DNA of 40,804 nucleotides from Catajapyx aquilonaris (taxonomy: Eukaryota). The stretch spans positions 62,001 through 102,804 of the forward strand of contig KZ538202.1 in assembly GCA_000934665.2 (NCBI GenBank). The letters are read 5' to 3'. Below are positions 1-38,871 of the stretch, one piece after another. The translations under genes and the position numbers were made by a program. Under the pieces are notes generated by a model, which saw nothing but the letters and a program-made list of their open reading frames with translations, had not been told where the DNA came from and made no database searches. Numbering within the stretch: the first letter of the stretch is position 1; each line of letters begins with the position of its first letter.

Positions 1-413
1 GGCATTTTTTCTGTACAATTTGGAGGTATGAATTGCCATTGTGGGATGGTGTAAGGAGGTGGGCCAAAAGTTGCATATTATGTGAAGGTTGCGGAGAGGC
101 AGCTTATGTCAACTTGCTAAGTTTGTTTTTGATTCTTCAGGGATCTTATTATTGAGGCGTACACACAGTACGTTGGCAGGTTAGGTTAGGTCAAGTCAGG
201 TAAATGTGGCTTATAAGCATCCATATACAGAGGCAAGAGTGTAGGTATTCTTTTCATAAGTAATGGGTGAATTAAATCGTATTTCCCGCATATAACACTA
301 CTTTTAGCGGTCACTTAAAGAGCGTTATATCGAGGTTGTACTTCAAACCCTGTTATCTCAATCCAGTATGACTCTCATCGTTTTGCACTTCATGTCTTCA
401 TAGGAACACTTAC

Positions 414-2177
414 CAATAGAAGGTCGAACTATAGCTACTGGCAATTTGGCCTCCTCTGCTTCCTTCTGCAGCAGAACTTCTGCCATGGCTTTGGTATAGA
501 TGTACGTGTTAGGCTTCGGCCTAATTAATCTGATGATGAAAACCCTTGATTAACATTCATCTACTGAGCACAATAATTTTAGATGCAAATCAATTTTTAA
601 AGTCAGTTTTGCGTGGAAGTCTCGCATGATATCAGTAATTTACAGAGCAAACCCTGTTCCCAAAGATCTTTCCACGCACACAAGCGTAACAACTATTTTT
701 TTTTTACTCTACAGTATAGTGTTCGTGTCGCTTTTCTTCCCATAAATTGCACGCGAATTGTCCTTTCGTTAGATAGAAAAATACTTACGTAGGCGATATG
801 TTATTGAGCGTGGCTTCGTCCAAGTTGTCAGCAATGTTGAGGATGTGCGTGGGATGGTACGCCATCGGATACACGGTTTCGTGTATTTCCTTGCGTTCGC
901 AGTTGCAGTACGCCGTGGACACGTGCACCAATGCCTGTCAGTACAGTACACGTACTTGTAAAATGTTCTAAACTCCAGTCATTCTTACAGCTTTCTACTT
1001 GGCAATAATATATATCACCCTAAGCAATATTGCTGAATATTTATGAATGCATAATAATAGCGGCTGCTGCAATTAATGTTGCTATACGCTACTGTTGTAA
1101 CTAGAACTTGTTTCGCATACCAATGCTCATCTACACTAACATGCCTTTCTAAAATGATAAATAATCACAATCTTTGAGGCTACTTACTGCCACATTTTTC
1201 ATTCGACGACACAGTTCCACCACTCTAATGACTGCTAGTACATTGATCTGCAGGGATCCCTTTAAGGGTTGATCGAACTTGACAGTAGCTGCAGAGTGAA
1301 AAACTACAGACACCTCCTCCAGCAACACTTTTTCGTCTTCCTCGCTCAGTTGGAGGTCATCCTTGGACACATCTCCCTTGACGGGCACCACTTTGCTTAG
1401 AGCCTGAGGGCATTCTTGTTTCAATCTGTTAAACACCTGCAAGAATATTACAACTTGAAAATACGTTGGTACGACCTAAGCATCTAAAGAAGTACCGTAT
1501 GTGCTATATTTTCGTGGCAACTTTTAGAAAGTTTACAATCTCCTGGCCCTTTATAAAAACAGACGTTCATATAAGTGACCGAATTTTTTTGCTGTTTTTT
1601 CAGTCTCATTACCTAGCGGACTCATTAGACAGGGGACGTTTGTTTAGCCATCATCGAAATGATGGATGATACATTGTGAGACTTGAGAGAAAGTTACAAA
1701 TTGGTATTTGAGATTTTCTTACTTATTTGAATTTTTTTTTTGACAACCATTGGCGTACTTGTAAGTAACATACGGTATAGAAAGTATGCATCCGAAATGA
1801 CTCATTCATAAAGAATCTGTGCATGTGACACGTTCCAGTCAAAATATGTCGAACTTCTGGACAGACAACTTTTCCAGCGTTTGTAACTTGTCAAGTACAT
1901 GCACTAACAAGGAGCTAACAGTGAGGAAAAGTAAGGAAAGTTCCCGAAGGAAGCGACAGACCTGGCTTTTTGTGAGAAGGTCAAGCCTCTGAGAAAGGGT
2001 GTGTCCCTCTTTGGGACGCAGCAGCACATATATACGGACAATTCCAGGACATGCTCTCAGCAGTTTTTCCAGAAGGACCTTCCCCATAAATCCAGTGGCT
2101 CCTGTGATCAGCAAGGTCCTGCCGGTAAAGAAACTGGCAACCGACAATTCTTGCTCCGGTACTGGTTCAGATTCCAT
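414..2177 (-). CDS. FAR: Fatty acyl-CoA reductase paralog A, 5' part only; coding exons 2177-1962, 1436-1188, 934-789, 529-414; continues beyond the left edge
   Basis: Spliced translation gives Rossmann motif [10 protein letters not shown], then [28 protein letters not shown], catalytic [12 protein letters not shown] and VRPSI. All introns are GT-AG with consistent phases (0,0,2,1). Internal exon sizes 249 and 146 nt are identical to FAR-B. Confidence 0.95.
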
Positions 2178-4439
2178 TCTGAATAATCAAGTTCAAGTCT
2201 CCTTGTCTGTGGGACAGAAAGGAAAATGTAATATCAAGAAGAAAGTGGAATCACTGCTTTTCCTTTAAGCAAGCTGACCTGCCTAAAAGATGCACAACGG
2301 ACAGCCGAGGCAGTTACACTGGCCATGGACCAACAAAAGGCAATACACAAACTACAACAGGCACATGTGAAGTAGAAAAGACATTCCCCAGGGAAAGAAC
2401 ACTCATGCGATCACTTTCCCAATCGGTCTCTTACAGCACCTGACCGGAAGCTGCAGTAATTCAAGTGACCATCACATATTTCAACAACACTATTACCACT
2501 ATGAAAAGATGACTGGGAACCATCCCTCATAAAATTACACCCAGGTCTGTAGCAAGAGATGGTACCGACACCAAATCGACCTTTCTGTTCCAAGTCTTTG
2601 GGTGTCCCAGAAGAGGACGGTCGGCCGGTTGTTTCTTTCCCGATCAAACGACTTTCTTTTCCTGTTTGTACCTCGCCCCTTGACCCGGATTTTGCCTACT
2701 ATACGTACTTATCTCTTCTTCTCTTCCTTCCTTCCTTCCTTCCGCTGACGAGTCTTCTATGAGTGACGGTGGCGCCACTAGGTTCCACACTGAAACCCAA
2801 CTGTCTGAACAACACCCACGTCTTCCATCTTCACCTCAGGCTGACTTCCAGTAACGGAACACAGTCGGCGTACCTGAAGACGGTATAACAGCGTATGAAC
2901 CACACGTGCAGCGCTTGCCTTGGCGCCAACTGACATGGGCCAGCACTGGTCCTTCTAGTTTCCTACGCCTGAATGACCTCTTTAAGCGGCCAAGCAAGTG
3001 ACTCAAGGCAAAGGGCCATCCTCCTCTAGTCCCCTCCTTCTTGCCCTCCCTCCCCTTCTCCTAGACCACTATTCTACGCGACGTCTTCCACTTTCTTCTA
3101 ACCTCTTCTCTTTCTCTCGGGTCATGGCCACGAATCTTTGGTCGGTCAAATATCCATGGATGATCCCTACATAAGCGAATCCACGTGCATCCAATTATGC
3201 AGTTTCCGTATTTTTTTTCCTCCCCAAAAAATATGAGGAGGTGTAACCACCAAGAAATCGGAGGCTTGACCATATTTGACCGGAAAAAAGATGGAAATCG
3301 AAAAAAAAACTTGTAGCATAGAGAAATTTCTAAGGCATGAACCAGGATGGATTGTGCGAACCAATTGGTGCGTGTGACTTGCTGCGTGAATTGTATCAAA
3401 ATGAAAACAGAATGCATGGGCCCCTGTTCTTCTTGAATTTTTGTTATTCCGTACCGTACCGCTGCGCAGTTGGCCCTGTTCGCCGAATGGCTCTGTGTCA
3501 CCTGGAAAAGAGCAGGTATGATGGGAGAAAGCGATTCAGAGGTCACGTGAGGATATGAATACTGGCCCCAACTAACTTTCCTTGAAAAGCTCTTTTCTCG
3601 TTAGCATAATTAAACGAAAGGAGAGCGGTCCTGCAAGATTTTTTCAGTCTCCTTTTGACTTCGCCAAAAGTCTGCTGCCATGCGAACAAAAAGCGGGACT
3701 TTTTTTTTTAAAAAAGGCTTTTGACAAGTTCTTTCTCAGGAATGCAATGAAGATGGGATGAGGCGGGGTGGAAAAAAAAAATCTTACACAATATAGTAGC
3801 ACTGAGTAAGAGTTATTTTTCAACCCATTGTATCCGTCGGTTTGTTCAAGTCAGTGCATAACATTATTGCATAAAGATATCCAAATATAACGTTATTATT
3901 ACACTCGTGTTGAAGGACACAATCATATGCATCACTATCATTCGTGCTGTCCGGTAACATTGTCTCTCTAGTAGGTTGAGCCCTTCATAATAATATGGAA
4001 TGCTTCGTCATTACGTTATGTACCGAAATGAATAGGTAAGGAACGTATATCGTAGGAAAGATAATGCATTACAAAAGGCTTTACAGCTCTGGAATCTCAT
4101 GGCCTCCAAGGTACTACAGCGTAGAATGAAATATTGAAAATATTGTTATTGTTGTTGATGTATATAGGATCAAGGTAACATCACAACAGTAATGTTTTAA
4201 AATGACCTTAACAGGTGTAAGCTTTTTTGTTTGCAATAACCAATTATTAGGGAGGGCTATCGTGGTGCTGTAGTTTCTGTCTTATTATTTCCGTGGTGGA
4301 AAAAATATATCGTATATACGGAAAATTACCAAGGCTGCAATAGAGAAGTTATTACACGGTATATATCGTATGATTTACGTTATGCAATTCCATTCTATAA
4401 TTCATGGGTTCATTTTCCACGACGCGCGTGAACTCGCCA

Positions 4440-8437: not shown

Positions 8438-11400
8438 TCAGGAAGCAAAACCATCTCCTCCATGCAGGGCTTTTGCCCATATACCTGGATTACCATGGAA
8501 CGATCCTGGTTCCACTCCGTACATGAACCAGACCCACAGATAGGAAAATAAAAGCCACTCCACCGGAGTGAAGACCAACACCAGGACTTGCTCAATGCAC
8601 CACAGGATGGGTGCTCCAATTGCGAACATGAAGAATCCTTGCAGTAGTCGTGTCCATATAATTCTCCTGGGTGACACAGACCCCCGGAAAGACAAACGGT
8701 AGCAGATTAGTACAATGTGACTTTTGACGATCTGGTTTACACTTGATGCTCATTCACTCACCTCATCATTTTTCTACGCTCGTTCCTCGTGGCAATGGGC
8801 CGATCTTGCATCTGGTACTTTCGAATTGCGGCCACGAAGTGACTCATGTAGGTGGGCCAATCCATGGAGCGCACGTCAAAGTGGAACAGCTCCTTGTCCA
8901 CAGGGTTCATCTCATCCCACAATGCTAAACTTTTGGTCATGTTGAACTGCCATTCTCTGTGAGTGAAGAAGTCAATGGCGTCTATCACACGATGCAGCTT
9001 CCGGCGAAGTCTCAACATCCTGTAATGCATTTTGAATTGTAGAGATGTTTGACAGGTAACAATGAAGACCGTACATTGGAATTTGCTTGTTGAGTGAGCA
9101 GTAGAAATCGATGATTGAAGCTGGCATGAAGTGGTACCAGAAGTCGTCGAACCAGTGCCGCCAAAGCCACGTGTGAAAGGTGGCCCTGGGCATCCACAAG
9201 GCTCCAGACACCTGGTTTCGGACAATGTGGAACTGAACCCAATACTGGAAGTCGCCCCATGTGATTGGACTGAGGGTGCCTGTGGTGCTGTGATACACCT
9301 GGATCTTGGAAGGTCTGCGGGTGCCCACATACCATCCGGCAGCTAGACACAAGTTGATGGTGACGTCTACAGGCACTAGGTCGACTATCATGTGGTTCTC
9401 GGCCATCCAGCTTCGTACAATGCCCTCGTAAATGCCGGAAACTAGTTGAATCGGCCCGTTTTGGCCGTCGATCCATCCTGGGAAAGGCTCCTTCCGCGAA
9501 CTCACCACTGTCAAATACCAACATGTTGTACTAACTAAGAAGTTGTGTCTAACAATTTATAGACAGCTTTGGCTCTGGCATCATCAATAATTGCTGCAAT
9601 AATATTCAAGGGTGGTGCCAGAATGGGGTAAATCAATTGTTAATCGGCGTTCATGTAATGGGTAGACTAGTTTAATAAAAAATTGCCGGATCGTTTGGTA
9701 CAAGAACGGGAATCATCGCCATTCACAGCTAATGACAAACTGTGGCTTATGTTTGCAATTAGCCCATAAGACCAGTTTTAATGCACATCGAGTATATAAT
9801 TATGGAATTCAAATTTTATAAACAAACGTCCTAAAAAATATAGATATGGATATCCCGACCACTATCACCATAACATACCCGGGCAACGCCGGGTAACCTG
9901 CTATACACTATACTTGGTACGTGGAGAAATCCTCTAAAGTGATTTTAATTTTGTTAGCAGCAAGTAGACAATAATTTTCACAGATTATTGAGTCCACCCA
10001 TAGTAGTGTGATTAGTTTCAACTTTTTACGTACCAATAGAAGGTCTGATAATGGTCACTGGCAGTCGGCCTTCTTCTCTTGTCAAAAGTACTTCGCTTAG
10101 GGCTTTGGTGAAGATATACGTGTTCGGCATGTCTCCAAGCAACCTAACGGGACAAGTTGTGGAAAAACCGCATTATACTGGTGTGTAGGGCTATCACAAA
10201 GGTAGGTTAATGACATGCTTACTGAGGAGTAATTGTCTCGACCTCTTCATCAGTCATTGTGTCTATGTCTTCCATAATCTGGATCGGATCGTACCGGAAG
10301 GGGTATACCACCTCGTCTATAACAGATCTCTCGCAGTTCGCATACGACGTCGACACATGCACCAATGCCTGAAAGTATGAAACAATTGTTAGGAGGAACA
10401 TCGTACCACTTCCCAATAAAATTTCTGCATGAGAACCGGATGGTGACAAGAACGTTGTAAAAACAAAATCGCACTCACGACTAGGCGGGTCATGCGATGG
10501 CAGAGATCAATGATGCGTTTCGTTCCCATGAGATTGAGACGCAGCGCCGGTCGAAGTTTTTCGTCGAAACGCACCGTAGCTGCCGAATGCACAACCACAG
10601 ACACGTTATGCACTAATTCTTCTTCGTCTTGCACCGTAAGACCCAGCCTCTCTTCGGAGACATCTCCCTTCATAACTCGAACCTTGGCCATAACCCCTGG
10701 GCACGTCGCCCGAATCTTGACAAACAGCTGAAACACATGGGGATTCATTAATACATTATTTTAGTACCTTACAATGCCTCGGTACCTCATAAACAGATTC
10801 ACAGGTTATTCCTGTGGAGGGGGCGGGAGTGAACAAATTACTCCTCTACCTAGTGAATGGACTTCATGTTGAGTTTGAATTTTCCCAGAGGAAATTTACA
10901 TAGTGTGAAACTCAAACAACGCACATAATCTCTTCTATCTAGAATATACGTTCCTAGCATAACTCGAAACAAGCAAGCATTTCCCATAACTGCAGCTTTC
11001 CATAACGGCGCGGCGCTTGTTTTACCCCACTTGGCAATCTAGCAGCTACAGAGAAAATGATTGTTCCAAGCAGGCATACCAGCAGTGGTCGTCTGCATCG
11101 CAGTGTGAATATCGAGGACGAACTATTCATCCACATTCTCTTTTTTTTCTCTCTCTTTCTCTCTCTCTCTGGTTAACGATACAGACCCGAAGGGAAAACG
11201 TCACTTGTCCTACTAAGCCTCAGAAAAATAAAGGTCGTTGTCTTCACAGTAGCTATGCCAGGAAGTTAGAACCTTGATTGTGATATTCATTAGAGAAACC
11301 CCAAAAACGGATAGTACATCCTGGAAGTTCGGGGAGAAAAGGTGGAATGGAATTACGGGAAGCTTGTGCTAACAGAAGCAAAAAGGGTCTCCCTTATTAT

Positions 11401-12598
11401 TCATTCTTCCCTGTGAAGAGCACGAAGCGGAACCAAGTATCTGGTCCCGTTACTGCCCCTCTCCATCCTCCCACACTGTCATCCACATCCAACTATCTTA
11501 TCTTAATAAGCCGGAATTTACCCATCAGATCAGCAGATCAAAATGCATGGCATATCATCTAATATTGCTGCATTTATTTTTAAAAAAAGTTTAAATGCAG
11601 GACAGGTTTAATAATGCGCATCTTTTGGGAAGTAATGTATAAAGGCATGAAGGTTCATGGTTATAGTTTGACGTCAATGTAATTGTGTTGCTAAATATCA
11701 AACTTACGCTATAGCAATTGAGCAACAACTTCAATAGGTCACACATGCACACAAGTGAAAGACATGTGTGTAAGTTAAAAACAAGACTCCCTGCATGTTT
11801 CTTCACAAACTAGTTTTTTAGAAAGGATATAGGGTATTACGCGCATAAAAATTACGTAAAGGTAAAAGACCTGTACCTACAATTTTTTCCGGGGTAACTA
11901 AGGTTAGTATAGAATTACCGTATATAAAATGTTCTTATGGGCCTACTAATCTAATACTTCCGTCCTTTAAAAAAAGGCATATCTGGGCTTTAATCTGCAT
12001 TAAAGAACCAGCCATTGAATTAAAGGCCAATAATTGGCCTTTAATTCAATGGTCAAACAGTGTCCAAATTGCGACAAAATTAATATTCCATTATACCACA
12101 ATAATTGTGGTATAATGGAATATTATTTTTCTCGCATTATTTTTAAAATCAAATTAGTGAATCAGGATGTACATTTTAATCTAAAAATACCTTACTATCT
12201 GATAATTTTAAAATATAATTTTTACAATGTTTTTTTTCTACCTTAGATTTCAAAACCTTGGAAGTAGGCCAGTATAGAAATGCATCTGTTGGCTAGCTAC
12301 TTGTGAAAGGCAACATATTAGCGTTGCGTGTGTAGTTAAATCCGCATAGCTTATAAATAGCATGAGTATCAGTTGGTTGCACACAATAACACTTTACCGG
12401 AGACTCCAGGATGTCTTGCAGGCGACGCTGCACAGTGTGGCCATTCTTTGGTCTTAGCAACAAGTAGATGGTTCCAACTTGTGGGCAGGACCGCAACAGT
12501 TTTTCCAGAAGCACTTTGGCCAGAAAACCAGTGGCTCCGGTGATGAACACGTTCTTGCCTGCATAGAAATCGGCAATCTCACTAGGAAGAGTAGCCAT
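8438..12598 (-). CDS. FAR: Fatty acyl-CoA reductase paralog B, complete; coding exons 12598-12398, 10727-10479, 10368-10223, 10143-10034, 9507-9075, 9019-8762, 8666-8438 (1626 nt, 541 aa)
   Basis: [64 protein letters not shown]-terminal domain (FFTHREWQF...[10 protein letters not shown]) and a hydrophobic C-terminal tail. All introns are GT-AG and the frame stays open to TGA at 8440-8438. Confidence 0.95.
9876..9904 (+). mobile_element. Helitron-like 3' terminus in FAR-B intron 4
   Basis: GC-rich hairpin TACCCGG-GCAACG-CCGGGTA followed 5 nt later by CTAT (degenerate CTAG end). The 5' end was not identified. Confidence 0.45.
12012..12052. repeat. Perfect palindrome, 20-bp arms with 1-nt spacer, in FAR-B coding intron 1
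   Basis: CCATTGAATTAAAGGCCAAT-A-ATTGGCCTTTAATTCAATGG. Confidence 0.95.
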
Positions 12599-13374
12599 CT
12601 TTTGCTGCGGAAGCCCGCTCACTGTGGATAGAAAAATTTACCGGAGTATAGCTTTTTTTGTGTGTCTCTTCACACACGTCTGCTGTAAATTGTACGCATT
12701 CCTTAAAACTGTGGTAGCGTATAGCCTCAGTCGATTTTCCGGATAAAAAAGACAGTAGATTTATCCAAGTAAAAAAACGACAATGTTGTTGTGTTCAGGT
12801 GCAAGTTCAATTGATATATAATGTCATGATGACGCAGGTGTTTAGAAAAATACATATCGCAAATAGGCAATATGTATATGGCGAAACCGTGACCTTGCCA
12901 GAGTACAAAACGTGCAGGCTATCAGCTACGTAACTGATCAGCCCTATGAGTTTCCTTTAGCAACCGATAGACTATCAAGAAGTAGTTCCCCCAAAAAGGG
13001 TACTGCCCTCGAAATGGGTATCGTAATAAAAAAATAATAAAAAAAGACTATCAAGTAGTATTGAGGCAGTCATTCAGACTGTCCTTGAGGCTGTGACACT
13101 GAATTAGTATACATTCAACTGAATTATCGAAGGAAATTCATACTTTCCTCCTTGAGTTTTTGTGCGGTAATTGATGGTAGTTCTGTGCGTGTTTTTTTCT
13201 GTTGAGTATAGGCCATCAATAGCTGTCGGATATAACTTACGTACTTTCAACAAAGGCGGCTCACACTTGACGGCCATCAGGATGCCATTATTTGCTAGGT
13301 CAACATCTTGAATAAATAATTGCTCCGTAACCTTCGATATGCTAATTAACTATATTAGTATGCAATATGAGTAA

Positions 13375-14484: not shown

Positions 14485-14516
14485 NNNNNNNNNNNNNNNN
14501 NNNNNNNNNNNNNNNN
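14485..14516. other. Assembly gap (N run) beside a G-rich tract
   Basis: 32 N; GGAAGGTAA is duplicated on both sides. Confidence 0.99.
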
Positions 14517-19500: not shown

Positions 19501-20418
19501 AGTATCATCGGTGCAAAAGAAAATTTTAATTTTTTGTTGTTACGGTTCAACGTAGGTATTAGCCTTGTGCATGTGTAAAATTACACTTGTATCGTATATT
19601 ATCCCATAATTTTTCTTGCCAAGGAAGGTAGATACGTGCAAAAGAGAGAAGGTAAGCCTACTGTGCTTGTGCAAAGCATGTGCTAATTACTGTTGCAAAT
19701 ATGCCCGAGTCTCAACTTCGTGCAAAAAAAAACGTGACTTAATTCCAGTGCAAGCAATAGCAAGTTGGCTCATGCAAAGGTCACACGGTAACACTGATCA
19801 ACAAATTTTGACAAAAGTGAAATTTCTGAGGTTCAAGTAGACATATATTAAAGATATCAATGTGCTGATCACGAATATGACAATAAAAATTCACAATTGT
19901 TTATGATTCCTGAGAAATCCGCAATAGTTTCTTACATAATGGGTGTAACACGTAGTACATATGGAGTGTATACCAGTAGAGGGCCGCTTCTATTGCCGAT
20001 ATTGCCGACTAATTGCCGATAATAAATAATAAAATTCACAACCTTGGGTGTCTATAGGTTAATGCCTAAAACTCGTTTTGCTTTCATGCACTATAGAAGC
20101 CTTATTGACGCTTCCCCCCTTATATTTCGCTTATATTTCATAATATTCCTAATTTCCAGCTTTACTATTGTTTTCCCCATGCAAAGAAACCTTTATGCAC
20201 CAAAAACCTCGCCGATATCAGATGTAAAATCCAGCTTCCTCAGATCCTTGCAAAATAGATCAATTTTTGACCTTTCGACCACCGCATCTCATGAATTCTT
20301 GAGAACTATAGGGTTTTTCTGGAGAGGTGCTTTCTTCCTAGCAGATGAAGAACCAGAAAAACACATTTTGAACTTGACCTTCACATAGAAATTCGCGATG
20401 TTCCCTTGTATGTCGTGT

Positions 20419-20481
20419 ATACAGCTTAGATGGTCATAATATGGCCATGTCATGGCCATATTATGACCATCTCAGCTGTAT
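20419..20481. repeat. Near-perfect palindrome, 31-bp arms with 1-nt spacer
   Basis: ATACAGCTTAGATGGTCATAATATGGCCATG-T-CATGGCCATATTATGACCATCTCAGCTGTAT (1 mismatch). Confidence 0.95.
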
Positions 20482-21654
20482 CTCCTAAACTATAGAGCCA
20501 ATATTTCTTTTTAAATGTCATATCCTTATTACTCTTTGAGGCACCCAGATGCTTAATGGCATGTCCAGGGTTACACTTTTCAGTTTTTTAATTGTTGTTG
20601 CGTCATCAGTACACCACAGAGTAGTCCTACTGCCCAGTTGCTTTCTACAAGTATAGGTCTATTAGTTTATTCATTGAAAGCGATGAGCACCATTCCCTTC
20701 GAAATGGTGCCAGTAATGAGCAATTAATGAATGGAATGGGCGGGAATGGTCATAAATAAGCGACAATTGGAAATTAAATGGGTTACGAGTGCTCACGAGT
20801 TGGAAGAAATATCCTCATTTACACCAGGACATCCTTACTCGGCTACCACACAAATGATAAACGTGAGAAACAAAAAAAAAGTTCCCTTAATAAATTTTAT
20901 TATAATAGCATTACCTACGCAATTAATTCGAAATGACCTAATCAAATGTTCAACTATTTCGTTTCGAAATGTGATGGGGAAGATGACTGTATACATTTAT
21001 GATTTCCCAGCACCCCATGCATAACATACAGTAGGCCTATGCAACAAGCTCAAATAAATAGCCATTGCTAAGTACAGCAGTAGGTAGCAAGTACACTAAA
21101 ATATCTCGCAAGATGCTACGTAACACACAGTGTACACTATATGAACGCTATTATTACGATATAATCCGGCTAGGGTTGCAGTGGATGTGTTTGTGTTCTA
21201 ATACATGCTGTGTATAATTAGTTAATGACTTTGACCTTGATTCGACGCCGTAAGCTACAGTACGTGCCATGTGAATTTTACTCGGAAAGGATTGCATTAC
21301 AGCGGATGGTTATTTCAAATTCTTGGTGCCCATTAATGATATGAATCAAGCCTTCCATGTTTCTAGCATTTGATTTAGCAAGGTAATTCCGATGCAACAA
21401 ATTATTGCTCATGCCTTTTATACTCCAGTACGCTTATTATTCTGGCCATGTTCCTTCTCCTTTTCGGAAATAAAGTGCACTCTCGTATATAGCTTAAGTT
21501 TTACCATTTACCATCCACATTGGATTTAGTATTTCAAGGAGGATTTAAAAAGAGCCTACTCAATTAATATTTTAAAACTGTGATCCAGCAACATAGAGGA
21601 TACGTCTTTTAAAACAAGTGTTTACAGTCATAATGGAACCGCAAGTGGAAGGCA

Positions 21655-24893: not shown

Positions 24894-24991
24894 NNNNNNN
24901 NNNNNNNNNNNNNNNNNNNNNNNNNNNNNNNNNNNNNNNNNNNNNNNNNNNNNNNNNNNNNNNNNNNNNNNNNNNNNNNNNNNNNNNNNNN
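24894..24991. other. Assembly gap (N run) beside a poly-G tract
   Basis: 98 N. Confidence 0.99.
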
Positions 24992-25392
24992 NGGGGGGGG
25001 GGGGGGCGTGATTACGGCAACGGCCAACTGCAACCAATAAACTCCAATGAATTGGCAGAGCTAATACTTGCTGGACTCGCACAAAATGACCTAGACCATG
25101 ACCTTTGAAGGTAAAAATGACCCCGAATCATCAGAAATGAATTCCTCTCACTTAATTAGACCGTGAGGCGGGGGGATACGAGGTATAACTCGTATTTATA
25201 AAGCAAAAAAACAAAAAGAAATAAGAAAAAAAACAGCATGGACTGATGGACGACATAGGGCCTACTGTACCGCTTGGCAGCAACACCTTGTCTACGTACG
25301 TAGAATCACTCTTGCGCTGAAAAAAAGAACAATATTGTCGGCATACTTACGTTTGAAGGTTTTAAGTTATTTACTAATACTAGTACTGGTTA

Positions 25393-25989: not shown

Positions 25990-26282
25990 GCACGGGTGTC
26001 GCCGGGATAATCGGAAAATACGGATAATCCTAAAATGGTACCGTAAAAACGAGCTATTTAGAGGTTTTCAATGTATTACTGTTAGTTTAATCAAAATTTT
26101 AATGAAACTTACCATAGATTTTCAGTTTGTCTCCTAGAAAAAGTATGTTCAATATTTCTTCGTGTGCGAGATATATTGACATTTTTTTCGGAATTTAATT
26201 TTTAATATTATTTTCCGGCGCTGCACGACGGATAATCAGAAACACTGATAATTCGCACCCGAATAACCTGGAGTACAGCGTA
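25990..26282. mobile_element. Non-autonomous DNA-transposon remnant (GGATAA-repeat family); related pieces at about 36590-36715 plus 37156-37201 and at 37360-37436
   Basis: Shared end GGATAATCGGGAGTACAGTGTA-like and shared internal segment CTAGAAAAA...ATATTTC.TCG..TGCGA.ATA.ATT. 25992-26030 is the reverse complement of about 37362-37399. Confidence 0.6.
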
Positions 26283-26551
26283 TTTCCTCCACGAAAACCC
26301 GAAAGAGTGCGTAAACTATAGAAAAATAAGTAAGTAAATAAATAAATAAATGCCCCTTTCAGTTGACATGGAGCTTACGTTAGTAGGCCTACATGTCGCA
26401 CCTCGCAGCACCTGCTTGACGCAATCGAATTCTCGAATTCATCGAATTCTCCACGACGGATGGCATGGCGCGGGAGCGGGACAAAACTAAACAGAAAAAA
26501 AACGAATAGGTAAAATAAATCAATGATAAAATAAATAAAAAAATAAAAAAT

Positions 26552-26557
26552 AAAAAA
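26552..26557 (-). terminator. RNA polymerase III oligo(T) terminator of the tRNA-like gene
   Basis: TTTTTT, followed by further T-runs, immediately downstream of the 3' acceptor strand on the minus strand. Confidence 0.7.
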
Positions 26558-26559
26558 GG

Positions 26560-26697
26560 TAGTGCGAGACGGATTTGAACCGCCGACTTGAGATGGCCCC
26601 CCCCCACCTGACTTGCTTCGGGCGCTCAGCTAGCGCTATGCAATGACAAGCTGGAAGAATTAAGGCCTCACGCTCTAACCAACTGAGCTATCGCACT
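26560..26697 (-). tRNA. Intron-containing tRNA-like gene on a tRNA-Tyr-like scaffold; anticodon position TTA (ochre-suppressor-like or non-canonical tRNA); intron 26659-26595 (65 nt)
   Basis: Minus-strand exons AGTGCGA TA GCTC AGTTGGTTA GAGC G TGAGG CC TTA A | A TCTCA AGTC GGCGG TTCAAAT CCGTC TCGCACT A form a 73-nt cloverleaf with all four stems paired. A and B boxes are intact, the intron sits at canonical 37/38, and TTTTTT follows 2 nt after the discriminator. Non-canonical positions: C33 and A1:T72. Confidence 0.8.
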
Positions 26698-26729
26698 ACC
26701 GTCCTGTGGGGCCTCTCCTTTTGAGGTGC

Positions 26730-26763
26730 TTTATACCCCTCCCTCACGTGACCACTGACGTCA
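26730..26763 (-). promoter_or_regulatory. Upstream element cluster: TATAAA (26735-26730), E-box TCACGTGA (26744-26751), CRE/ATF TGACGTCA (26756-26763)
   Basis: TATA lies at -38..-33 from tRNA position 1, with two perfect 8-bp palindromic factor motifs directly upstream. Function is inferred. Confidence 0.5.
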
Positions 26764-27560
26764 CCAGGGGGGGGGGGGGTGAGGGAGAAGGGTGGGCGAT
26801 TCTGTTTCGTTCGCTCTGCAAGTATGGCGGCTCATGAGTTACTGTATTGAGCCACGTTCTGAGCAGGTTCTGAGCCCTGCTGGTCGCCTTTCTCGCCCCT
26901 TCTCTGCCTGCCCCCGGGGCGGGAGGTCGGAGGAAGTGGGGCCTCCATCGGTCCCTATCCGTGCCCCTCCAGCCAGGCTCATCTCCTCCACAAGCACGGG
27001 GGAGATTATCGTCTCCAGACCAGTTATTATTATTATTTTTGAAAGGTGAGAGAGTTCTTGATGGTAGTGGATTTCAAATGACAGTTACCAACCACATTTT
27101 GAAAATCCGCTGTAACCCTAAATAATTTTATTTTGCATCATTTTGTAGGATCCAGGTTGGAAATTTTATGGGCAGCTGAGTGTAAGTTGCTACCTCTGGT
27201 ACTACTGTTTCTCTGCCTGGCTATAGGTGAGATTTCTTGTGCACCTCAGCTGCTCGGTTTCTGTCAGTAGCTGCTTCCATTGGGCCAGCAGAGGAGGGAG
27301 GTTGCTGCCTTGCCACACCACACTCGTATATATACAAGGTATGTCTGGTTGGTGCCCGTTTCCCCATCCCTCTCTTACTGAGAGTCAGGCTTTATTATTT
27401 TATGTGCCAGGCAGGCAGGTGATATTTACCCTACTTACTACTTTTGATCTAATAGAGGTTGTAATGTCTAGTGTGATGCAGATATATCCAGTAAGGTGTT
27501 ACTTGGTTATAATTCTGAGTAGCCTACATGTTGCTATTGTGTTGTCATAACCTAACTCTA

Positions 27561-27854
27561 GACCGAAGCAGTAGTGGTGTAGTGGTATGGTGTCCGACTG
27601 CTAATCGGGAGGTCCTGGGTTCGAATCCCGGAGGCCGGCGACCCTGATCATGGTTTTCTGTGGTTTTCCATGGTCACCGCAGGATAATTCCGGGGTCGTT
27701 ACCTTAATTATAGGCCACAGCCGCTTCCTTCCTTACCTATCCTTGCCTCAATTCCGATGAAAAAGTATAGTAAAAATGGAACGAGTTCCAGACAAAAAAA
27801 ATTGGGAGAAATCCCCCCCTAATAAAGTCTAAAGCGCTGATAATGGGGTATCAA
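27561..27854 (+). mobile_element. tRNA-derived SINE (central domain resembles Nin/Inv-type invertebrate SINE cores)
   Basis: A box TGGTGTAGTGG, B box GGTTCGAATCC, body GGTTTTCTGTGGTTTTCC...TAGGCCACAGCCGCTTCCTTCC. Exact 16-bp TSD TCATAACCTAACTCTA at 27545-27560 and 27855-27870. Confidence 0.9.
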
Positions 27855-33068: not shown

Positions 33069-36000
33069 TCACTGTATCTTGATAATGGAAACCCCTATGA
33101 TCATCAGGAGGCAGCAGAAGGCAAAGGACCAGAGTAAGGTCCGAATCTGAGCAAGTCGTGAGCGAGCTGCCGGTACAGTGGAAGGGTTCTGTCTGAGGAC
33201 GAATCGACGGACTCCTGCCACATAGTCCTTCAGATGTGTGTCCCAGTTGATGCGAGATGGATGGAAAGGGAAGAGGACTCTGTCTTTGGGCGTCATCCAT
33301 TGCCATATGGCGTGCATGTGACTGCACTCGAATACCCAGTCCTCAGTGATGAAAAAGGAACAGAGGTCAGACATGATGTCCAAGCGACGCTGCAGACGTA
33401 AGCTACGGAACTGAAACTGTACAAAAGAAGCTATAAATAACCAATTCCTTTCAGATTCACCATAAGTAGATCTCACCTTCACAATATCAAAGAAGAATGC
33501 AGGCAGGAGCTGAGCGAAGAATCTGTGTATGTCATACCCAATTTTTGAGGCATGGAACACCGGCGACGGTGGTAATATTAAATCTTCAGACGGCATTTCT
33601 GACATGTAAGAGCTCACGAGTTGGTGAAATTGGCGCCATAAGAGAGGGTTGATGGTTCCGGAAGTCATGTGAAGAACCAGAGGCTTCTCGCTTATCATTT
33701 GAGTTGTACCCAGATGATGAATGCGCATGGCTGCCACTAGGAGGAAGTTGGCCAGATGATCGACGGGTACCATGTCCGACAACTTGTTTGGATCAGCCAG
33801 GACCGAATGCATCACTCCCTGGGCCATCGCAGCCATAATCGCAGTCGCACCAAATATAGACTCGACCCATCCTGGCTCCGGATCCTCTGCAGACGACACC
33901 ACTGCAAGAATCGCTTCCAGGTTAAAGAGCTACTGCCTCCAAATTCAAAAATTGTGAGAAATGAGTGGAATGTGTCTATATACAACAATGTATCCAAGTT
34001 GTAATACTTGGGACAGTGCAGTGGCCCTGCAAGATTGGCATTGCCCTTAGATTCACATTGTTAAATCTTACCGATGGATGGCCGCACAATGGCTACTGGC
34101 AGCCCATACGAAATGCATGCTTGCTGCAGATAATTCTCGGCCACAGATTTGGTGAGAACATATGTGTTGCACTTGTGACCTCTGAGTTTGGGAAGAAGCA
34201 TCTCCATTTGTTCCTGGGTGCAGCTCTCCATCAAGTCCAGCATGAGTCTTGGGGAGCAAGGGGAAGGGTAGACCATCTCTTTGACAATTGGTTTGTCTGG
34301 GCAGTCGTGGTTGCAGTAGACAGTGGAGACATGCACAAAGGCTCGAAGTTGGGGCATGCCCTGGGCAAGGCTGACCAGGTGGTGCACCGAACCCAAGTTG
34401 ACATGGGCTGCTTTCAGCAGAGGATCCGCCATTTTCACAGAGGCTCCGACATGGAAGATGACAGAAACACATTTCTCCAGTCGGTTCCACCATTCTTCAG
34501 ATAGGCCCAGTTTGTCGCATGCCAGGTCTCCCTCCACAGCCACCACCTTTGACATGCAGTCAGGTTGTTCTCTCATGGCACGACTCAACCCCTGTGTGCA
34601 GATAGGTGAAAAAAGTAATTTTTTAATTTGTAGAAACTAAAGTGCTGAATATAGCTTTTCTCATGGGAAGTAAATTACGATTCAGACATGTACATGAGTA
34701 TTTCTTTCAGATATTAAAATATTTTAGATACATTTATAGTCTTCTGCTTTTCGCAATTACTTGCAGACTTCGACCTTATTAGGGCATCATCTACCAAGTC
34801 ATGCAAAATTAAATGAAAATTTTGCAGGCTTCCAAACCCCTTTTATTGCCATTTTAAAATAAAACAAATTGCAAGTTGACAACACTACAACCTCCCATAT
34901 CTTAACTCAAGATCCTTGGTATGCAATTATAGCGTTCAATTTTCTAGTCGATGCTGTAAATCTCACTGACATTAATATATCCATGTCACCCTGCATTCTT
35001 AGAGAATTATTTCCAACCTTTTCACTCAATATCCTACTTAATAATCTTTAGACCTCATCACAAGTCACCTCGTGCTTCCTTTGTGAAAGTGATAGGAGCT
35101 AGTCTATTTAATTGCCGGATTTGAGCTCTTTTCTCAACATAATTTCTTTTTAAGGTATTCGATGAGAATAAGGACATAGTGTAATCATATTATTCGATTA
35201 TATCCATTCAGAGCAGTATCTTCAACCATTATCTCCATTTTAGACCAGGGCCCTTTCATTATTATCGATTCAAATGCATAAATTACATAGTAAATTATTA
35301 GGACCAGTTCGAATTATGGAGAACTTATTAGATCTAGAAATTCTACATAGAGTTGAACAGAAAATATTCAAAAATCTCCACCAGGCTGTAGCTTCATTCC
35401 GAATTGCACAAAAATGGTTCCTGGTTAGACTGGTCACAAGGAGGGTAGCATAGTCTCTTTTTGCAATTACGTGAATGTCCAGTACATCAGAAGGAGTGGT
35501 CCTCCTAATAACCCGAACAAAACCTCGGAGTCCGTACTACATGATCACAATTCATCTTTTATGTGTACAACTTCGCATTGATTTCGTTCCAGGATAATAA
35601 TTCTACTGTAACTGACACAAAATTGGAAAAATTATTGAGGCTGTATTTAAATTTATTGAAATGATTCATGTTAATATAAAATACATTCCTGAGTTCCTGC
35701 CTCCTGGTAGCATCTTTCCATATTTTTGCTATTTATAAGTCATTACTTTGATGCAATTTTTGATGCAGAAAAGAGACACGCACTTTTGCATGTAGGTGAA
35801 GTGAAGTGAAAGCTTGTGAGAACTCCACGTACGGTATTAGTCATACACTATAGGTTGGTGCATTGGGGCCTTAGAGCCAGGAAGAACAGCCACAGCAACA
35901 TAGTAATCCTTACCAATCAAGAAATCAAGCAAAAGAAGAGAGCTTCCAAAGCATGTGTACTTCACAACGTGGAAGAGAGGTTTTGGGAATGTGGGAAGAA

Positions 36001-37946
36001 ACTGAAGAACCAGAATAAAAGTCATGCACATCTCAACATCTGACATGTAATATACAGGATGTTCAGTAATTATACCAGCAAGATTCAAGGGTAAATTCAT
36101 GGGGGCAAGAGAATGATATTTTTATGTATAGGTTTTTAGTTTCCATACCCTCATCGTTATTGAGACAGTGGGCTGCAAACACCAGGCATAAAATATCCTG
36201 ACAGATATTCACTCCTACGTGCGACCTTGCATTTTTCATTTCAACTAAAGTATATGTTAGGATTCAAGTTTAATTTAAACTGAGGTCTCATTAGGTGCAG
36301 CTGGAAGTGGACGAGATGATATAAATATTGTAAGCTGTAGGACATGGTGATGTAACTAACTTACAAGTCATTTACTTTTTAAACCAAGTAACTTATTTAC
36401 TAACTAATTGCTTTTAGCAGTAACTAGTTATTATTAAAGTAACCTACCCAACTCTGGGTGTAACTCACCATTTGATATTATCTCAGTAACGAGGATGTGG
36501 AGATCAATGACAACCTCTATTCATAAAGATTAGTGATCCTCTTATCAGGAGTTCTCAGAACATTATCATAATTATTATTACGAACACCCTCTAGTCTAGA
36601 AAAAATTACTTATATTTCCTCGATTGCGAAATACATTACAGATTACACCATTACATTTTCTCAGACTTTAATCTGTTCATTTTTTTTAGCAGATGCACGG
36701 ATAACACCGATTAATTTATTTATTCATTTTATTTTATTTATTTTACCCCATTGGAGGGCAGAGCCCTTTTAGGGGGACACAACGCCATCGCTTATACATG
36801 AATACGTCACTAGTCAAGAGAACTTCCTCTACATAAGTACGGATACATCCATGTAATTGGTTGGCCAAACTCGCCCATCTCTCAGTCGCACATTTCTATT
36901 CTTTTAATTACGTTTTCTAAGAAGTTATTCAGGTTGAAGGATTGTTCTTTGGTTATGTCAGCCAGCATTAACAGAAAACGGTCAGGAGGGTAGGTAGGCA
37001 AGCTGTACAGATAGGCCTATGCATGTCTGGGGGTACGGAAAAAGGGACAAGTGTAGATTATATGGTGGGGGGTGAATGGTTCGGCGATGTTACACCAAGT
37101 ACAGTCCTCCGTGTAGTCAAAAATCAGCCGGCGGCCCAAAATGAAAAGGCTCTGAGATAACACCGATTAATCAGCACCTGGATAATCGGGAGTACAGTGT
37201 ATCTCAGAAACAAAGAAATATAAGTCTTTATTCAGAAGACCAACTAAAAATCTATGGTAAGTTTTTATTATTATGATTAAACTTAAAAGAGGTTATGTAG
37301 GCCTACAGCAGTTCATTAAAAATCTCAGAATAGTTCATTTATGGCATATAGGACCACTTTCGGCTTATCCGTGTTTACTGATTATCCGGGCACACCCGAG
37401 AATTCCTTAACACGGATAAATCGGGAGTATAGTGCATTTGTTGCAATTTTCCTACTTCAGTTCACAACCTACACTTCGCAACATGGACAAGCCAAAATCG
37501 GCTATCTTCAAATCTTTATCATTACGCCATTAGGCCAATCGTGACAGGTACATATTAAGCTCTTGATTATGACATGATCAAAATTTTTTAAAAAAATTAA
37601 ATTTTAAAATAGAGGCATTCCTTGGCCAAGTGCATAAGCACTGCCCTAAACTATAGATACTCAAAATATATACTGGTACCGGACTATGGAGCAATTTTTC
37701 CTTCCTGGTTTCTACATCGACTCCTTTTAACGGTCGTATCAGCACGAACACTGTGCCCACATGTAGACATGACCTCAGAATCTTCTCCAGAAGTGCTTTC
37801 CCGACAAAACCCGTGCCTCCAGTCACCAATACATCTCTTCCTGAAAAGAAGGTCGAAATATTTTCAGTGGCGCCTTCTACACCGTTGTCTAATGAGCCGT
37901 CTTTGATAGCTTCAATGCCCATTTTGTGTCCTCGACTCAGCAACAT
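33069..37946 (-). CDS. FAR: Fatty acyl-CoA reductase paralog C, divergent, complete; coding exons 37946-37680, 34591-34072, 33901-33477, 33416-33069 (about 519 aa; alternative start Met at 37922)
   Basis: VTGGTGFVGK, VEGDL, HVSTVYCN, NTYVLTKSVAE, VRPSI, DPEPGWV, DMVPVD, FFITEDWVF, INWDTHL..GVRRF and a C-terminal hydrophobic segment. Introns are GT-AG. The third intron (33476-33417) is in-frame and stop-free, so its exact use is uncertain. Confidence 0.92.
36716..37155 (-). mobile_element. 5'-truncated non-LTR retrotransposon (LINE 3' end) in FAR-C intron 1
   Basis: 16-bp TSD GATAACACCGATTAAT at 36700-36715 and 37156-37171, and an A-rich (TAAA)n tail at about 36716-36745. Minus-strand translation DCTWCNIAEPFTPHHIIYTCPFFR is a CX2CX9HX4C knuckle typical of LINE ORF2 C-termini; one in-frame TAG follows. 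Confidence 0.85.
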
Positions 37947-38871
37947 GCTGTACGACACAGAGAGTGAAGCTCAATTCAGTCCAGGTTCCCTAAAGTACAG
38001 TACTTTGGGTGACCAGGGGTTACCCAACACAGGCTTCTGTAGGTGCCATCTAGGAGCAGCTGAGATACTTTCACCTGAAGATTTGTGTTGGTGTCGTCTG
38101 TTGTAGACCTTGACCTTCGCGAGAAATTTTATGACCTGGACCCACTTGCGGACTCAGCGTTGCTCTTGTCACGTGCGTAAAAAAGTGTTTACATTGTCAA
38201 AAGTTACGTGCTGTTCACAATTAGCTGATCTTGGCACTGACGTGACTGAGGTGGTCATAAAAATTTAGTGTCGTGTGTGAACACTGTATTTGTAATGGTT
38301 ATCTCGACACATGACTTGCTATGTATTTTTATATAAATTATAGCTTATTAAATTATAAGTAATACACTTTGAGTGTTTCAGGTAGGATAAGTGCGTTTCA
38401 TCTCTTAATTAATACAGAGCAGTAAATATGGATGTACAGTACTCTGGGGATTAATTCACCTATAAAAAGTATTCTTCCCATTGCATCACTCGTCACTACT
38501 CTCTTTATAGGGCAATGCAATGCTTATGGATGTGTACTTAATATTATGCAAGCACTGTGACTGTAAGCAGAAGCATTCTGTTTATGGCCTATGTAATTTT
38601 ATTGTCTATTAACACGATGAAAATTGCGAAACTTGTGTATGTGAAAGAAGTGTGAAGGCAATGAACGTTTATTACCAAGTTTACTTAGTAAACCATAAGA
38701 GGATATGAAGCACTTGTATTATTTTTTGTTCATTTGAAGCAGGCGTTATGGTACAGTACAGCACTGAAGAGCCTTTCGCTGATGAACCCTATATGGTAAT
38801 AGTGACACAGCAACAAAGGAATTCAGGAAATGAATTTGACTTTTGCGTCAACGTCAGGGGACGAGAGGTTT

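Follow-up and report, generated by a model that had tools for sequence, protein, structure and literature searches.

The 40.8-kb stretch of DNA analyzed here (hereafter, the window) is eukaryotic nuclear DNA of 40% G+C, and it carries a single intron-containing tRNA gene whose anticodon, UUA, is complementary to the stop codon UAA and is preceded by C instead of U at position 33. On balance, we lean toward the view that this gene belongs to a small paralogous tRNA family, kept now or until recently by selection on the mature RNA and its promoter, whose product would be attenuated in decoding or would not decode at all. The argument for this reading comes from the anatomy of the gene, from sister copies found in sequencing contigs of two samples, and from the contrast between exons and introns among those copies.

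Anatomy of the tRNA gene

The gene occupies positions 26560 to 26697 on the minus strand, as judged by an Rfam match together with our reading of the sequence; its pre-tRNA body is 138 nt long, and the mature form would be 73 nt without CCA. Its parts, with the basis for each, are as follows.

26660-26697, minus strand: 5' exon, tRNA positions 1 to 37 (5' strand of the acceptor stem, D arm, 5' strand of the anticodon stem, and C32 to A37); Rfam and sequence
26661-26663, minus strand: anticodon UUA (positions 34 to 36); sequence and contigs
26664, minus strand: C33; Rfam, sequence, and all contig versions
26595-26659, minus strand: 65-nt intron at 37/38, with a long hairpin; Rfam and folding
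26560-26594, minus strand: 3' exon, positions 38 to 73 (3' strand of the anticodon stem, variable loop, T arm, 3' strand of the acceptor stem, and A73); Rfam and sequence
26679-26690, minus strand: A box, positions 8 to 19; sequence
26571-26581, minus strand: B box, positions 52 to 62, GGTTCAAATCC; sequence
26552-26557, minus strand: T6 Pol III terminator, two bases past A73 and followed by further T runs; sequence
26730-26735, minus strand: TATAAA, −38 to −33 from the mature 5' end; sequence
26698-26738, minus strand: 41-nt upstream block that holds the TATA box and is identical in all family versions compared; contig record 5

Rfam model RF00005 matched the gene along its entire length (model positions 1 to 71 of 71) at 51.0 bits against a cutoff of 29 (E = 3.3e-08), and this was the sole match at gathering level in the window. 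The alignment flagged no nonstandard pairs, and all four stems are standard-paired; a 70-letter insertion in the anticodon loop comprises five loop positions plus the 65-nt intron. Read directly, the sequence gives a 7-bp acceptor stem whose first pair is A1:U72, followed by discriminator A73; a 4-bp D stem with a 9-nt loop that includes G18 and G19; an anticodon stem UGAGG/UCUCA with one G-U pair; an anticodon loop CCUUAAA (C32, C33, U34, U35, A36, A37, the intron, and then A38); a variable loop of 4 nt; and a T stem GGCGG/CCGUC, again with one G-U pair, closed by the T loop UUCAAAU. Conserved positions U8, A14, G18, G19, G53-T54-T55-C56, A58, and C61 can all be read in the gene. This is a real, well-formed nuclear tRNA gene with an intron.

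ARAGORN found no tRNA when run without its intron option. With that option it proposed a Val(tac) tRNA of 95 bases, its intron 45 nt long and its extra arm 22 nt long and unpaired; this candidate is poorer than the covariance-model alignment, and we set it aside.

Nearly all elongator tRNAs have U at position 33; here, C33 is present in the window copy and in every contig version from two samples. The anticodon is that of an ochre suppressor, and the complementarity of UUA to UAA was confirmed in both samples. Of the features expected of tRNA-Tyr(GUA), an intron at 37/38 and A73 are present, whereas the GUA anticodon and the C1:G72 pair that marks eukaryotic tRNA-Tyr are absent.

An initial annotation, made from the letters of the window, had described a complete 73-nt cloverleaf with a 65-nt intron at 37/38, and the full-length RF00005 match and our own reading bear this out. 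The A and B boxes, the T6 terminator, and the absence of a SINE body or tail can likewise be read in the sequence, and the TTA anticodon with C33 holds in the sequence, in the Rfam alignment, and in the contigs of two samples. The same annotation held that loss of C1:G72 speaks against an ordinary Tyr suppressor, with which the A1:U72 pair agrees.

Genomic context

The window contains the following further features.

1-2186, minus strand: fatty acyl-CoA reductase (FAR) gene, with few large exons (NAD_binding_4 plus Sterile), running off the window
8758-12637, minus strand: second of the three tandem FAR genes, of the same make-up
33069-37970, minus strand: third FAR gene, of the same make-up
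14485-14516: assembly gap (N run)
24894-24992: assembly gap (N run), flanked by simple repeats

Two of the FAR genes are separated by a 20-kb spacer, and the tRNA gene sits within it. Of the 11 open frames scanned, nine match NAD_binding_4 and/or Sterile, and the FAR exon frames are gapless in the Pfam profile (positions 1 to 49, 57 to 206, and 207 to 257, plus Sterile). Across the three FAR genes, some 1,300 codons in Pfam-contiguous exons contain no in-frame stop, and TGA closes both terminal exons; the genes of this window use the standard code, and none of them shows a variant code in which UAA is a sense codon. For one FAR exon, the nearest protein-atlas clusters are mostly from Arthropoda, a weak hint that this is an arthropod genome; homology searches with a FAR exon gave no hits.

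Several other elements lie in the window. A second tRNA-like stretch at 27575 to 27631 on the plus strand, extending to about 27700, scored 28.6 bits against the cutoff of 29 over model positions 8 to 63; it has a GCU-type loop, lacks an acceptor stem, and is followed by non-tRNA sequence, and as a whole it resembles a tRNA-derived SINE head. At 20418 to 20482 there is a near-perfect palindrome in which a 22-nt unit is repeated twice; microRNA-precursor models matched it on both strands below threshold (35 to 42 bits against cutoffs of 80 to 100), and a hairpin-forming repeat or MITE is a more probable identity for it than a known microRNA. Positions 25993 to 26286, in the spacer, show a weak inverted similarity to 37159 to 37398, which lie in intronic sequence of the upstream FAR gene; identity is 66% across 206 bases and 79% across 47 bases, and the similarity probably reflects an old dispersed repeat. 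A search for a retroelement primer-binding site complementary to the 3' end of the tRNA matched only the gene itself.

Predicted splicing of the intron

Fly intron-containing tRNAs, in the available part of the report that describes them (bioRxiv 10.1101/497545), have a C-G proximal pair in 16 of 16 cases, an invariant 3-nt bulge at the junction of intron and 3' exon, and 6 nt between the C and the end of the 5' exon. The predicted fold of the window gene shows all three of these features of a splicing endonuclease substrate. C32 is able to pair with the third-last base of the intron (G at −3), and the 3' cut site then falls in a 3-nt bulge. When we enforced the cloverleaf and paired C32 with G(−3), the pre-tRNA folded at −48.1 kcal/mol with a BHB-like motif: below the anticodon stem lies a 3-nt bulge made up of the last two intron bases and A38, then a short helix (C32:G(−3), C33:G, and U34-G), then a 4-nt bulge containing the 5' cut site, and then the long intron hairpin. 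The unconstrained minimum was −52.4 kcal/mol (z = −2.4), and 3 of 200 shuffled sequences were equally stable.

The four versions of the gene that we rebuilt from contigs (see below) all fold to a cloverleaf with a long intron hairpin; in the three versions other than the window copy (A, B, and C), the intron is 63 to 64 nt long and retains both the G at −3 and the long hairpin. We considered a second anticodon-like hairpin within the intron and rejected it: the loop of the central hairpin is 5 nt, without a 7-nt loop of the U33 type.

From this anatomy, Pol III would be expected to start a few bases upstream of 26697, guided by the TATA box and the A and B boxes, and to stop at the T6 run. The tRNA splicing endonuclease would then cut at 37/38 by way of the C32:G pair, the 3-nt bulge, and the 6-nt spacing, and ligation would give a 73-nt tRNA with a CCUUAAA loop.

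Family versions in sequencing contigs

We aligned contigs from four sequencing runs to positions 26450 to 26850. Three runs (X1 to X3) come from one sample (S1), which may be the source sample of the window assembly, and the fourth (X5) comes from a second sample in a second study. Contig differences are listed only if they reach at least 10% of depth and are 31 letters or more away from where a contig piece ends.

Exact-match contigs cover the TTA and C33 in all three S1 runs and in X5, where they span 26559 to 26738 (records 25, 27, and 28; 0 other letters). The TTA and C33 are real; assembly error, which the initial annotation had raised as a concern, is ruled out by exact contigs in two samples. 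Because exact-match contigs are found in the second sample as well, neither feature is private to one assembly.

Among the records listed, S1 holds three intron versions, with depths in X1 of 48 for the exact copy (record 1), 62 for variant A (record 2), and 40 for variant B (record 3). Variant A shows 13 listed substitutions and 6 gap letters, and variant B shows 5 of each. The exact copy and variant B join an exact contig (record 4; 26629 to 26691, depth 74); record 4 and variant A, in turn, join a further exact contig (record 5; 26662 to 26738, 0 other letters), which has the highest depth in X1 (142). Record 5 spans C32, C33, the remainder of the 5' exon, and 41 nt upstream with the TATA box, and both anticodon types run into it. 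X5 contains the exact copy and a fourth version, C, whose intron resembles that of B in its 3' portion and, to some extent, that of A in its 5' portion; judged by this mosaic, copies of the family evidently exchange sequence. The family comprises at least four intron versions, three with TTA and one (A) with TTT.

The TTT anticodon of variant A results from T>A at 26661 (plus strand), the sole exon difference listed for any version. Measured as word depth, which does not equal copy number, the A at this site accounts for 61.9 of 135.7 in X1, 49 of 114.3 in X2, 61.5 of 148.9 in X3, and 0 of 12.5 in X5; that is, the TTT version makes up 41 to 46% of word depth in S1.

The totals of other letters and the listed differences are 14 and 13 for A, 6 and 5 for B, and 13 and 12 for C. 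Because the contig ends that overlap exact contigs cannot hold it, the additional unlisted difference falls within 26565 to 26594 in A and B and within 26560 to 26589 in C. As judged from these totals and overlaps, a single 3'-exon change most likely sets the window copy apart from A, B, and C, and it would fall within 26565 to 26589 (tRNA positions 43 to 68).

Past 26738, the copies diverge: between 26743 and 26833, record 8 shows 9 other letters along with 5 gap letters, and one contig has a 7-letter insertion behind 26732. The region just upstream of the gene (26740 to 26790) contains an inverted repeat, CCCTCAC ... GTGAGGG, around CACGTG and TGACGTCA motifs, as well as a run of 13 to 14 G bases, with a 9-base run of the same kind in the intron; here the paralogous copies differ by substitutions and small insertions. 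In one X1 contig, the match to the gene begins at 26669 and extends to the right (tRNA positions 1 to 28), whereas the 255 letters to its left are unrelated; this contig represents another member of the family, partial or rearranged, at a different place in the genome.

The summed depth of the gene was 142 to 306, compared with 23 for a 799-nt flank contig, that is, at most about 6- to 13-fold, which suggests a handful of copies rather than hundreds. The hundreds of dispersed copies that the initial annotation had entertained were not seen. Further decayed copies may exist, given the 10% depth and 30-letter limits on listing. The window itself contains no second copy of the gene.

Exon and intron divergence

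In counts that include the deduced 3'-exon site, the window copy differs from A at 2 of 68 exon sites and, in the intron, at 13 of 65 sites with 4 indels besides (Fisher p = 0.002), from C at 1 of 62 exon sites and 12 of 65 intron sites (p = 0.002), and from B at 1 of 68 exon sites and 5 of 65 intron sites (p = 0.11). Across all versions, exons differ at 0 to 2 sites and introns at 5 to 14 of 65. Among the other versions, the intron substitution distances are 14 for A-B, 13 for A-C, and 7 for B-C; by these distances, the deepest split separates the UUU type from the UUA types, and the UUA types have themselves diverged from one another with their exons kept.

A conversion tract that homogenized both exons would also span the intron between them, and for this reason selection on the mature RNA and the proximal promoter is the simplest reading. 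The conservation of exons across diverged introns points to such selection and away from a decaying pseudogene, a SINE, or an assembly error, although the paralogues compared all come from a single species and part of the pattern could stem from gene conversion between copies. The initial annotation had suggested selection on RNA structure instead of random decay; its suggestion, drawn from stem covariation relative to tRNA-Tyr, gains weight from a different line of evidence, namely paralogues that keep their exons while their introns diverge.

It is unlikely, in our estimation, that these genes are a nonfunctional pseudogene family, in which a Lys- or Tyr-type intron gene gained U33C and anticodon changes, was duplicated, and is now drifting, with exon conservation arising from conversion or limited sampling. 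C33 and a stop or variable anticodon do look like disabling mutations, and a drifting family would be consistent with the putative private 3'-exon change of the window copy relative to A, B, and C, the partial copy that breaks at 26669, and the recombination between copies implied by mosaic version C; predicted "Sup" tRNA genes are, moreover, common in animal genome annotations. Against drift, however, the gene scores 51 bits with its four stems and tertiary positions preserved, and the excess of intron over exon changes (5 to 14 of 65 versus 0 to 2) is significant (p = 0.002) in two of the three comparisons with the window copy. Conversion of both exons would take in the intervening intron, and the conserved block ends 41 nt upstream, just beyond the TATA box. 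We favor selection on the mature RNA and promoter as the explanation for this pattern.

Amino acid identity

Two lines of evidence bear on the amino acid identity of the tRNA. Introns in animal tRNAs occur mainly in Tyr-GUA, Ile-UAU, and Leu-CAA genes, and more than 90% of tY(GUA) genes carry one, according to the accessible part of a survey (PMC12168002); this distribution favors a Tyr-type origin. On the other side, variant A has the anticodon UUU and the window copy UUA, and because U34 and U35 are shared by both anticodon types, a Lys-type identity would fit better than a Tyr-type one. U35 is the main synthetase contact of tRNA-Lys(UUU), and the loop of the UUU sister presumably differs from the usual Lys(UUU) loop at position 33 only.

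The derivation from tRNA-Tyr offered in the initial annotation thus survives in part: the intron at 37/38 and A73 agree with it, but C1:G72 is absent and there is a TTT sister with an otherwise identical 5' exon. As read from the sequences, a Lys-type (UUU/UUA) identity appears at least as likely as a Tyr origin.

C33, A1:U72, and decoding

All copies combine C33 with A1:U72, a feature of initiator tRNAs that disfavors use by the elongation factor. In yeast, as reported in a study of human Elongator, C33 blocks Elongator-dependent modification of U34, and the SUP4 ochre suppressor (UUA) with C33 loses readthrough of ade2-1 and can1-100 (PMC11096365). This yeast result may not transfer to animals. 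Among human cytoplasmic tRNAs that decode ANN codons, C33 is found only in the initiator, and initiators of multicellular eukaryotes carry it; since the KEOPS complexes of human and nematode tolerate C33, this base is not a block to every modification in animals (PMC8887486, in the portion available).

With C33, by the yeast result, and A1:U72 in all copies, the product would be expected to read UAA very weakly or not at all, which would in turn let a standard-code genome tolerate several copies. By analogy with yeast, C33 probably keeps the tRNA from reading UAA efficiently, and the conserved tRNA is probably attenuated or non-decoding. An anticodon that is UUA in some copies and UUU in another, among copies otherwise conserved, is odd for a decoding tRNA.

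A bolder form of this reading, which we consider quite unlikely, is that purifying selection in a standard-code animal keeps both the UUA intron-tRNA family and its UUU twin, each deliberately attenuated by C33 and A1:U72, for regulated low-level readthrough of UAA or as a tRNA-shaped RNA with a non-decoding job; alternatively, the family might represent a standing "ambiguous intermediate" as proposed for stop-codon reassignment, of which the UAA = Lys code of one ciliate is an example.

We regard it as very unlikely that the gene is an active natural ochre suppressor, one in which the tRNA, once spliced, would receive an amino acid, most likely Lys, and insert it at UAA at a low but useful level, for example in programmed readthrough of particular genes. 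The UUA anticodon followed by A37 and A38 (A36-A37-A38), the intact elements of the L shape, and the conservation of UUA-type copies across diverged introns would all suit a suppressor. Lysine is, reportedly, the meaning of UAA in a ciliate code that separates UAA from UAG. Predicted genes of this kind also occur elsewhere: planarians have 17 predicted SUP-TTA genes, and the one that was tested gave a tRNA band on a Northern blot, according to the part of the preprint available (bioRxiv 10.1101/2020.08.25.266106). However, in the sole direct test that we found, yeast sup4-U33C did not suppress ochre codons (PMC11096365, available in part); the genes of the window use the standard code and show no sign of UAA as a sense codon; and the third anticodon base is not fixed, as sister copies have UUU. 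The initiator-type A1:U72 pair also counts against efficient suppression. The attenuated or non-decoding product set out above remains our preferred reading.

That the gene is a tRNA-like SINE head, another dispersed repeat, or an assembly artifact is exceedingly improbable: a separate SINE-like tRNA-derived head does lie in the window at 27575 to 27631, and an A/T-rich stretch downstream of the gene was treated as a repeat in the contig comparison, but the terminator comes two bases past A73 with no body or tail, a tRNA intron is not expected in SINEs, which are retro-copies, word depth is at most about 6- to 13-fold that of the flank contig and not in the hundreds, there is no second copy in the window, and exact-match contigs occur in two samples.

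Stop-anticodon tRNA genes in standard-code animals are usually dismissed as pseudogenes. Here, comparison of paralogues indicates constraint on the mature RNA, and the base that the gene carries at position 33, C, is the very one that silences an ochre suppressor in yeast. Should the family be expressed, it would show how a genome can safely carry suppressor-type tRNAs, and it would bear on stop-codon reassignment in evolution and on the tuning of therapeutic suppressor tRNAs; if it is not expressed, it would be a well-preserved small family of dead tRNA genes.

Comparison with known systems

In open-access full text, we came across no account of a UUA/UUU family that bears an intron and carries C33. 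The exon strings did not occur in full-text papers, and the exon words gave 0 matches in metagenome and viral contigs.

The closest laboratory counterpart is yeast SUP4-o (tRNA-Tyr, UUA), which is also an intron-containing nuclear tRNA with anticodon UUA. The window gene differs in having A1:U72 instead of C1:G72, A37, and a 4-nt variable loop, and it belongs to a natural multicopy family rather than being a laboratory allele. The sup4-U33C laboratory mutant has the identical C33-U34-U35-A36 arrangement, in the part of that study available (PMC11096365).

The intron places the gene near the animal tRNAs that carry one. Long, structured introns are a feature of fly tRNA-Tyr. As far as the accessible portions of the sources describe them (PMC12168002; bioRxiv 10.1101/497545), animal Tyr-GUA, Ile-UAU, and Leu-CAA tRNAs share with the window gene the intron at 37/38, the C-G proximal pair, the 3-nt bulge, and the 6-nt spacing, and fly intron tRNAs also yield circular intron RNAs. 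In contrast to these tRNAs, the window gene has an anticodon that is none of theirs, lacks the Tyr identity pair, and has no long variable arm of the Leu type.

Initiator tRNA-Met, like the window gene, has A1:U72. It also shares C33, according to the part of the source available (PMC8887486). The window gene differs from it in lacking the CAU anticodon and the run of three G-C pairs in the anticodon stem, and its T loop is of the elongator type (T54 and A58).

As for the genetic code itself, a ciliate has been described whose code assigns different meanings to UAA and UAG (PMC10553269, available in part), and the genes of the window use the standard code. Closer in this respect are the planarian SUP-TTA genes cited above and those of zebrafish, where Sup-TTA clusters with Lys-TTT, one change away, in the available text (bioRxiv 10.1101/2024.01.30.575011). 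As described in these partial sources, both are likewise nuclear, with a TTA anticodon and several copies, in standard-code animals, and the single-change step between zebrafish Sup-TTA and Lys-TTT parallels the TTA and TTT versions of the window family. The planarian genes, as far as can be told from the Northern probe given in the accessible text, seemingly have a different tRNA body. Sup-TTA genes have thus been predicted before, in published work on standard-code animals. For the planarian and zebrafish genes, the available portions of the two preprints describe no intron or C33; in the window family, an intron, C33, A1:U72, and a conserved TATA block occur together.
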